Shown one piece after another: positions 33,960 through 34,700 of a stretch of DNA of 64,000 nucleotides (its first letter is position 1; every line of letters begins with the position of its first letter). Below the pieces are notes generated by a model. It was given only the letters and a program-made list of their open reading frames with translations, made no database searches and was not told where the DNA came from. The position numbers were made by a program, and so were the translations under genes. Source of the DNA: a virus. Location of the stretch: IMG/VR virus record IMGVR_UViG_3300036045_000002, positions 1 to 64,000 of that record, one strand, 5' to 3'.

Positions 33960-34700
33960 TAGGAAAATTTCCACAAATTTCCTGTTTTCGGGTGGTTTTG
34001 ACCGGTTTTTCGGGCCAATCTCCGGAAAATTTTGGCGTGTCGGCTTGTAGGCTGCGAGAATTCGGCAAGGCCGGCAAAATTTTGGTAGCCTGGCTGGAAC
34101 TTGCGATCACTTCGACGGCCACACGCACGTCGTTTCATTGGTTGACACGCACACTTTATATTGCGCACGTACACGCACGCGATCAAACGACAGCGCTGCC
34201 AAGCACTCGCTAGACAATGCGTGCGTGTACAGACGTAATCAAACAACACTAAGCGCGTACGTCTGCGTGCGCAACGTAAGCAGTAATGACCGGTCGAGTC
34301 GGCGCTCGCACGACCGGCACACGTCAGTGCGAGCGTGCTACACTGCGTACACATACATGCGCTGTCTCTAGACGTTACGAACATGTGCATGCGCTGTCTA
34401 GACACAACACGCTCTGACATCAGTGCTGAGAAACTGCGTGCGCATGCGTGCGCAACGAACTACGCAATGACATCGCTTCGCGTAATTGCGTGCGCACAAA
34501 TGCGCAGTGAACTGCGCAGTGTCGCACTACGTTATACGCACTCGCTGCGCCCCCTCGCAGCGCCCCCACACACTACGTTTGCTCACAGACGCGATTAGCT
34601 CGCATCTGCTGCGTTTCTGTGCGTGCGCTGTGTCTAGACTCGTCTGCGCCCCGCGCCCCGCAGACGCGAGCTAATGCGAAATTCGCGACTTCGCGGAATT
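33960..34700. other. Non-coding island: phased A/T tracts followed by a GG/CC-depleted alternating purine-pyrimidine tract
   Basis: A/T tracts at about 10-11 bp spacing over 33964-34033; no GG or CC in 34318-34549. Confidence 0.75.

Follow-up and report, generated by a model that had tools for sequence, protein, structure and literature searches.

The first 64,000 nucleotides of an 80,085-bp virus genome in IMG/VR (record IMGVR_UViG_3300036045_000002), referred to here as the window, contain a tract at 34140-34650 that is almost free of the dinucleotides GG and CC. We found that this tract is the local, non-coding copy of a conserved, positional ban on GG/CC from which the context GGCGC is exempt. 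What is conserved between this genome and its relatives is a rule on composition and position, not a sequence, a gene or a message. The best-supported explanation, which we advance tentatively, is that the zone is caused by the phage's own DpdA/7-deazaguanine system, with a predicted motif of GG but not GGCGC. In the comparisons below, the whole 80,085-bp genome is denoted G000.

A GG/CC-free tract in a divergent intergenic region

A 1-kb divergent intergenic region separates the first structural gene (minus strand, 33822 to 33406) from a plus-strand gene at 34822-35253. The tract takes up the middle part of this region, at a distance of 1.6 kb from the terminase genes, and is made up of three GG/CC-free sub-tracts with short hairpins between them; these hairpins hold the only GG/CC (Table 1). 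The original prediction, made from the letters of the window, had placed GG/CC-free runs at 34318-34549, 34201-34289 and 34568-34648. These limits are exact, with the bounding GG/CC dinucleotides starting at 34316/34550, 34199/34290 and 34566/34649, respectively. Across the full genome, 34140-34650 holds the first, second, third and sixth longest GG/CC-free gaps (234, 91 and 83 nt, and the adjoining 59-nt gap at 34140-34199). The 234-nt gap has an expectation of ~1e-19 under a geometric gap model, and no comparable gap was present in the other nine dinucleotide classes of this genome. A sliding-window count of GG+CC, proposed as a check on the prediction, was run genome-wide, and the 300-nt window at 34251 contained 5, where its own G and C content predicts 48.8 (observed/expected 0.10). 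The lowest windows in eleven related genomes without such a zone or a low-complexity repeat gave observed/expected values of ~0.43-0.81.

The tract retains plenty of G and C, as had been predicted, at 57% G+C. The steps CG, GC and CA/TG are raised, which is compensation, and purines alternate with pyrimidines at a frequency of 0.70, compared with 0.47 genome-wide. With observed/expected values of 0.8-1.2, most of the remaining non-coding DNA in the genome is not depleted, so the lack of GG/CC is no general trait of non-coding DNA. Avoidance of Rho recognition (YC) was likewise rejected, because TC and CT occur near expectation in the tract (0.77 and 1.08), while GG and CC are banned alike.

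The tract is non-coding. Its 87-aa open reading frame (ORF, 34335-34598) has by our estimate roughly 55% G+C at third codon positions (GC3), compared with ~90% in real genes, and has no similarity to the zone genes of the relatives G001 or G016 described below. No tRNA was predicted in the tract, an Rfam scan returned only chance-level matches (E 0.25-0.96, far under gathering scores), and folding of either strand was slightly better than that of shuffled sequences (z about -2).

Short repeats and palindromes had also been noted in the tract, and both are indeed abundant: TGCGCTGT(N)CTAGAC occurs three times among many inverted repeats, and there are 18 6-bp palindromes where 7.7 were expected. 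These include TGCGCA (7), TCTAGA (3) and GCATGC (2), all rare elsewhere; for TGCGCA, 7 of the 9 genomic copies fall in sub-tracts A and B. Avoidance of restriction sites by the zone is contradicted by this richness in palindromes. In sub-tract A, which opens with TTGACA (34142), TATATT is just 9 nt further on, and the repeat pair TGCG..ATCAAAC.ACA is present.

The same ban beside the terminase genes of related phages

We searched for relatives through homologues of P0001, the first structural gene (62 loci), and through the large terminase, and then compared the whole records of syntenic relatives with 35-62% protein identity. None of the 62 loci found via P0001 homologues has a zone. Among the large-terminase loci, strong composition-corrected GG/CC-free stretches were found in L068, L074 and L093; those in L092 and L031 were merely A+T-rich intergenic gaps and not equivalents. 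A zone is present at the same place in four related phages, G016, G001, L068 and L074, and all zones lie less than 2 kb from the terminase genes.

The closest relative, G016 (80,131 bp, 50% G+C), is collinear with G000. Its zone (15751-17050) begins directly 3' of a near-consensus promoter, TTGACA-17-TATATT, spans three genes, namely a winged-helix homologue (42% identity) and two more small genes, and ends with the operon. In G001 (72,228 bp, 53% G+C) the zone is at least 2.8 kb long across both contig ends, has an observed/expected GG/CC content of 0.03-0.09, and holds a 195-aa ORF and a winged-helix gene. The L068 zone covers a winged-helix gene, itself partly depleted, and its surroundings, and in L074 a 122-nt zone abuts the start of the winged-helix gene. 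Counterparts of P0002, the winged helix-turn-helix (wHTH) gene beside the tract in the window, are found beside or inside the zones of all four relatives. Searches between the zones revealed no nucleotide similarity beyond 12-mers, and tblastn searches with the G000 proteins found no gene exclusive to zone-bearing genomes. The coding sequence of P0002 is itself not depleted (57 non-exempt GG/CC runs against 58.5 expected), whereas the zone genes of G016 are, and therefore what is conserved is a rule applied to a place.

In G019 and G018, very long repeat proteins of Asp/Glu-rich and Cys-Ser type are encoded (L182 17440-17850; L180 6080-6500 and 7870-8170). Their DNA mimics GG/CC-free tracts and is a trap for automated scans for zones.

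Selection at the DNA level and the GGCGC exemption

In G001 and G016, whole genes are nearly free of GG/CC. The two zone ORFs of G001 contain 11 and 18 GG/CC, compared with 49 +/- 5.8 and 50.7 +/- 5.5 under synonymous codon resampling, and the three zone genes of G016 contain 7, 2 and 4 non-exempt runs where 45, 16 and 18 were expected. Gly, Pro and Trp together make up 1% and 5% of the two zone proteins of G001 and 1-11% of those of G016, against 14% of the G001 proteome. The residue after Gly is always Ala or Arg in L068, and in both L068 and G001 only Ala or Arg precedes Pro; this restriction of neighbours forces the DNA words GGCGC and GCGCC. Selection thus acts at the DNA level and in the relatives overrides protein sequence.

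The only tolerated GG/CC context is GGCGC/GCGCC. GCG stands before 20 of the 21 C-runs in the L068 zone and before 26 of 37 in that of G001, where the background frequencies are 0.16 (binomial P 1e-15) and 0.09 (5e-20), respectively. For this window the figure is 5 of 12 runs in the exempt context (two GCGCCCCC, two GCGCCCC and one GGCGC). In G016 the exempt context takes the form of the full palindrome GGCGCC, with 14 of its 52 genomic copies within the 1.1-kb zone. A specific GCGCC-containing site (CWGCGCC) was considered and rejected; it is scattered genome-wide in G000 and not confined to the tract, and is better read as a tolerated context. GG and CC are banned with equal strictness on the coding strand. 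This symmetry argues for a reader of duplex DNA, not RNA.

These comparisons bear on the idea that the lack of GG/CC is a by-product, either of an array of palindromic operators or hairpins (TGCGTGCGCA, TGTCTAGACA) that happens to lack these steps, or of a tract prone to form Z-DNA, which the original prediction had offered as its alternative. The repeats and palindromes, the concentration of TGCGCA, the raised alternation and the adjoining wHTH regulator gene would all fit, and for G000 alone such a reading is hard to separate from an explanation by modification. However, the repeats account for only part of the 511 nt, the relatives impose the ban with different motifs and inside genes at the cost of Gly, Pro and Trp, and the GGCGC exemption is common to all zones. 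The Z-DNA version fails as a general cause: in the zones of G001 and L068 alternation is only ~0.56, and there GG/CC alone is missing while AA, AG and GA steps reach or exceed expectation. We therefore regard a by-product as decidedly improbable.

A replication origin whose iterons the adjoining winged-helix protein would bind is very improbable. Repeats both direct and inverted, together with a gene for a DNA-binding protein next to or within the zone, recall an origin located within an initiator gene. Nevertheless, the tract has no A+T-rich unwinding element and is enriched in CG/GC steps, a weakly matched O-like initiator and a DnaB helicase with primase are encoded at 50.6-55.6 kb in a region of lower G+C, the initiator and DnaB genes occupying 52.9-55.6 kb, and an origin gives no account of a dinucleotide ban over whole genes.

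GG/CC-poor leaders and a possible RNA-level rule

The original prediction had also pointed to GG/CC-poor patches following promoters near 51481-51575 and 55626-55685. These are the fourth and fifth longest gaps of the genome, 51507-51576 (69 nt) and 55623-55686 (63 nt), and both do follow sigma70-like promoters (TTGAAC-18-TATGCT at 51.5 kb and TTGAAC-18-TAGTCT at 55.6 kb). The leader at 51.5 kb precedes a second winged-helix paralogue of P0002, which by our reading of the sequence has an AbrB/SpoVT-like C-terminal tail.

The leaders raise the possibility of an RNA-level rule, by which leaders or early messages would avoid GG as a false ribosome-binding site, CC because it would hide the true one, or a word recognised by an endoribonuclease. 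This is attractive for the two short leaders, where ribosome-binding sites would be kept unique and unpaired: both are GG/CC-poor exactly from the -10 box to the ribosome-binding site. The G016 zone starts right after its promoter and ends with the operon, the two zone genes of G001 use GAGAG and not a GG-containing ribosome-binding site, and GGC and GCC are, by our own reasoning, the GG/CC triplets that lie outside Shine-Dalgarno and anti-Shine-Dalgarno words. However, GG and CC are avoided equally strictly on the message strand, and tolerance extends to GGCGC specifically and not to GGC at large. The wHTH message of G000 is undepleted and untranslated DNA upstream of it is depleted; folding is unremarkable on both strands of the tract, which has no Rfam match. 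Such a rule also leaves unexplained the shift of the zone from non-coding DNA in G000 to coding DNA in G016. As an account of the zones, an RNA-level rule is improbable.

Short GG/CC-poor patches (30-43 nt each) also occur in dispersed palindromic elements at 39414-39483, 45509-45579, 52658-52725 and 63041-63084. The central GG of the patches at 39.4, 45.5 and 52.7 kb sits in a conserved word, ACGGTCGT. Since this GG is not in GGCGC, the patches were not counted as part of the rule.

A 7-deazaguanine gene cluster and spared palindromes

The original prediction proposed that the phage modifies G in a GG context and that DNA which must be read unmodified has lost the target. The genome does encode DpdA-like, FolE, QueD and QueE-like proteins in a plus-strand cluster (Table 1). 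The DpdA-like protein had no Pfam hit at a threshold of 0.01, and a non-exhaustive scan of the proteins found no QueC. Phage DpdA enzymes target short motifs containing G, and DNA so modified is protected from restriction enzymes (PMC7544227, PMC10484667); DpdA of phage CAjan modifies GA and GGC (PMC7544227), and in phage iggy modification is at GA (PMC7544227, PMC10484667). All three zone-bearing genomes that are complete enough to check (G000, G016 and G001) carry DpdA and genes for synthesis of 7-carboxy-7-deazaguanine (CDG). Relatives lacking the modification genes had been suggested as a comparison, and in the DpdA-less G018 and G019 the only such tracts are acidic or Cys-Ser coding repeats, which are look-alikes of a zone, so this comparison did not refute the prediction. 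Within the cluster lies a gene for a 544-aa protein with homologues in G016, G002 and G023, and in G006/G008 at only 24% identity; none is present in G001 or G017.

A second line of evidence comes from 6-bp palindromes, which G000, G001 and G002 strongly avoid; AAGCTT, AGATCT and TTCGAA have no copies in this phage. We divided the 64 6-bp palindromes by the presence or absence of GG/CC (Table 2). In these three genomes the GG-containing sites behave as if protected from restriction, and the lone site that appears unprotected, GGCGCC, is the context that the zones tolerate. Sites of the GG class are, by contrast, avoided in G010 and G011, neither of which has DpdA. The sparing of GG-class palindromes other than GGCGCC and the GGCGC exemption of the zones can be joined in one hypothesis, namely that G in GG is modified unless it lies in GGCGC.

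Table 2. Nearly absent 6-bp palindromes without and with GG/CC in five genomes
Genome	DpdA/Que genes	Nearly absent, without GG/CC	Nearly absent, with GG/CC	Fisher P
G000	yes	12/30 (GTCGAC 2/78, TTCGAA 0/23, CTCGAG 3/38)	1/14 (GGCGCC 0/30)	0.026
G001	yes	16/43	1/13 (GGCGCC 0/14)	0.039
G002	yes	20/45	1/12 (GGCGCC 0/5)	0.020
G010	no	4/38	9/11	
G011	no	18/34	4/11	

By this hypothesis, the phage DpdA/7-deazaguanine system would modify G in GG but not in GGCGC. Selection would strip every GG/CC except those within GGCGC from a stretch of duplex DNA less than 2 kb from the terminase genes and beside the wHTH operon. A zone without targets would then stay unmodified in an otherwise densely modified genome. 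We infer the modification, its GG motif and the unmodified state of the zone from sequence. Why blank DNA would be wanted is a matter of speculation: wHTH or other regulators may read guanine N7, the terminase may need it for cutting or recognition, or it may serve first expression from the end that enters first. It is possible, and we say so guardedly, that some densely modified phages keep a blank zone by their packaging genes that lacks the target of their own enzyme, even at the loss of Gly, Pro and Trp.

The modification genes, the ban on both strands and the sparing of palindromes thus speak for this part of the prediction. Several observations weigh against it. The association of zone and DpdA comprises three of three genomes only, with a base rate of ~6 in 11. 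G002, G017 and G006 carry DpdA and Que genes and have no zone. A DpdA tree rooted with CAjan DpdA places G002 with G000 and G016 (support 95/93), a clade that G017 joins, while the G001 DpdA is only 28% identical and belongs to a separate, distant clade with G020 and G021, yet G001 obeys the same rule. In CAjan there is no zone free of GA/TC, the longest such gap being 81 nt (E ~0.2). As GGC is a modified context in CAjan, no enzymatic basis is known for the GGCGC exemption. Each palindrome test is by itself of modest significance (P 0.02-0.04), and the genomes tested are related; the zone-less G002 shows the same signature, and G021, in the DpdA clade of G001, avoids GG-class palindromes. Conserved promoters of the genome contain GG (TTGAACAGGACG), so a lack of GG is no general requirement of regulatory DNA, and the genes that follow these promoters, early and middle, are full of GG/CC; that host RNA polymerase has to read unmodified DNA is a conjecture which neither observation favours.

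The absence of a zone in some DpdA-bearing relatives invites a different reader. Some factor of the infected cell may read duplex GG/CC, such as a CRISPR effector with a CC or NGG protospacer adjacent motif (PAM), a nuclease, or a silencing or coating protein, and the zone would be DNA that must survive or be expressed first, for example a leading end next to the packaging site. The strand symmetry of the avoidance and its constant position within 2 kb of the terminase genes are consistent with this, and the presence of a zone tracks neither the presence nor the clade of DpdA. T5 first-step-transfer DNA is one precedent. Another comes from Autographiviridae, in which the early-injected region is reported to decide sensitivity to Type I restriction (PMC12455610). 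However, GGCGC would not escape a PAM reader, the rule is common to phages of 45-65% G+C with probably different hosts, and the zone is not poor in restriction-type sites, given its excess of palindromes and the 14 GGCGCC in the G016 zone. We consider a host factor unlikely.

A zone-confined dinucleotide ban that dictates amino-acid neighbours means that some molecule reads the GG/CC step on DNA, and we found no comparable local rule in the literature searched. If the reader is the phage's own DpdA, the modification motifs of uncultured phages could be predicted from sequence, modified DNA would be a liability for at least one step in the phage's own cycle, and the zone would mark DNA and small genes that are needed plain and are candidates for the earliest functions of infection. 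If the blank-zone interpretation is true, the modification motif can be read from sequence alone, here as G in GG but not GGCGC, and some step of infection (regulator binding, terminase action or first expression) cannot use modified DNA. If instead the reader is a host factor, the zone would be the trace left by a defence or silencing activity that is specific for a dinucleotide and has not been described before.

Layout of the genome and of the locus

The ends of the record overlap, with genome positions 79563-80085 repeating window positions 1-523 (523 bp, 96% identity) inside a 5'-3' exonuclease gene. The assembly is thus circular or permuted and was closed across strain variants, with a unit length of ~79.6 kb. 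The genome has 65% G+C. The gene layout, from a GC3-based gene call together with Pfam and PHROG scans, is given with the features of the locus in Table 1. The best match of the large terminase among cultured phages is at most 42% identical, and a DNA search of a phage collection with this genome gave no match. By these comparisons the phage has no close cultured relative and is neither T5- nor T7-like.

P0002 combines a disordered N-terminus rich in Lys and Ala with a winged-helix domain that is predicted with confidence (predicted local distance difference test score, pLDDT, 80-89). Its structural matches, to PadR/MarR-type regulators, are weak and the fold is a generic wHTH; Pfam and PHROG scans assigned it to no family, and one sequence homologue was found. 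We take the putative terminator at 35507-35545 to be the end of the wHTH operon. GG/CC-dense repeats lie on both sides of the zone, at 35612-35866 and 33950-34095 (the latter of GGAAAATTTCC type), and G016 has CAGTCA[AG]AACC repeats at the matching place (L169 17200-17290). These arrays are possible packaging or TerS-binding sites.

Two further features of the window were recorded. ARAGORN called a 99-nt tRNA-Arg(TCG) at 22146-22244 on the plus strand, within the minus-strand structural block, and this call is doubtful. A weak O-like replication-initiator match (phrog_678, E 2e-5) at 52884-54161 adjoins the DnaB-like helicase gene; this region has the lowest G+C of the window (0.59) and is a likely origin region.

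Table 1. Features of the locus and of the genome (window coordinates unless marked)
Feature	Position	Strand	Description
Structural block	~7.7 to 33.8 kb	-	gene call, Pfam/PHROG
P0001	33406-33822	-	first gene of structural operon (decoration protein); 62 homologues in viral contigs
Left flank	33823-34139		GG/CC-dense; A/T-centred repeats GGAAAATTTCC, CCGGAAAATTTTGG; weak promoter-like site 33888-33859 facing structural operon
Sub-tract A	34140-34289		GG/CC-free except one GCC at 34199
GG/CC-bearing island	34290-34318		perfect 7-bp inverted repeat CCGGTCG / CGACCGG around GAGTCGGCGCTC, which contains GGCGC
Sub-tract B	34318-34549		232 nt, no GG/CC; TGCGTGCGCA-type palindromes, TGCGCAGTG x2, ATGCGCTGTCT(C)TAGAC x2
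Hairpin	34541-34567		CGCTGCG-CCCCCT-CGCAGCG then CCCCC; both C-runs in GCGCC context
Sub-tract C	34568-34648		81 nt, no GG/CC; third copy of TGCGCTGTGTCTAGAC
Right-edge inverted repeat	34594-34675		16 nt, 94% complementary, around inner hairpin CGTCTGCG-CCCCGCGCCCC-GCAGACG; marks right edge of zone
Short wHTH operon	34.8-35.5 kb	+	gene call
P0002	34822-35253	+	winged-helix DNA-binding protein, 143 aa
Small ORF	35329-35481	+	50 aa; 3' of P0002
Putative terminator	about 35507-35545	+	hairpin CCCTCGGACG..CGTCCGAGGG and T-run; our reading of the sequence
GG/CC-dense repeat arrays	35612-35866		GCTCGACC[CA]AAGGTC x4, CCGGTTTnnnCCGG x4; between wHTH operon and 3' end of large terminase gene
Terminase genes	36.2-38.7 kb	-	gene call, Pfam/PHROG
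Large terminase	36234-37973	-	part of 36234-38739
Helix-turn-helix (HTH) small-terminase-like gene	37975-38739	-	part of 36234-38739
Long block	from 38.9 kb onward	+	replication, nucleotide metabolism, sigma-70-like, NusG-like, 7-deazaguanine cluster; Pfam/PHROG
Leader 1	51479-51576	+	behind TTGAAC-18-TATGCT; sole GG/CC in 97 nt is one GGCGC; 5' of second wHTH paralogue
Second winged-helix paralogue of P0002	51541-52035	+	behind promoter at 51459 and GG/CC-poor leader
Leader 2	55623-55686	+	behind TTGAAC-18-TAGTCT; GG/CC-free from -10 box to ribosome-binding site
QueD/PTPS	58775-59263	+	PF01242, E 1e-28
Radical SAM QueE-like	59558-60310	+	Pfam/PHROG scans
FolE	60414-60992	+	PF01227, E 1e-70
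544-aa protein	61362-62996	+	no Pfam or PHROG name; Pfam/PHROG scans
Second radical SAM gene	63061-63864	+	Pfam/PHROG scans
DpdA-like	63866-64930 (genome)	+	phrog_887 queuine tRNA-ribosyltransferase, E 1.2e-28

Comparison with known systems

A close parallel to the proposed system is provided by the DpdA systems of CAjan and iggy, which resemble this phage in having DpdA-like together with FolE, QueD and QueE-like genes. A motif-free zone has not been described in them, and CAjan has none; the motif predicted here, GG but not GGCGC, also differs from theirs. As no QueC was found here, the modified base would be a CDG derivative (compare PMC10516641).

Avoidance of restriction sites and of CRISPR PAMs shares with the zone the removal of a short word by selection, and this genome also avoids 6-bp palindromes. 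However, the known examples act genome-wide on sites of 4-8 bp or on PAMs, whereas here a dinucleotide is removed from one zone of 0.5-2.8 kb, with one exempt context. Leading-end DNA of phages with stepwise genome entry, such as the first-step-transfer region of T5 and the early-injected region of T7-like phages (PMC12455610), is similar in being a bounded segment near packaging genes with sequence rules of its own, and the G016 zone has the strong host-type promoter and small genes. This phage is nevertheless neither T5- nor T7-like, and its zone is not poor in restriction sites.

CpG islands are likewise bounded zones whose dinucleotide content relates to DNA modification. Their logic is the opposite, in that the target is retained where DNA is unmodified, whereas here the target is removed. 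CpG islands are moreover eukaryotic and driven by mutation, while the selection on the phage zones reaches the amino-acid sequence.

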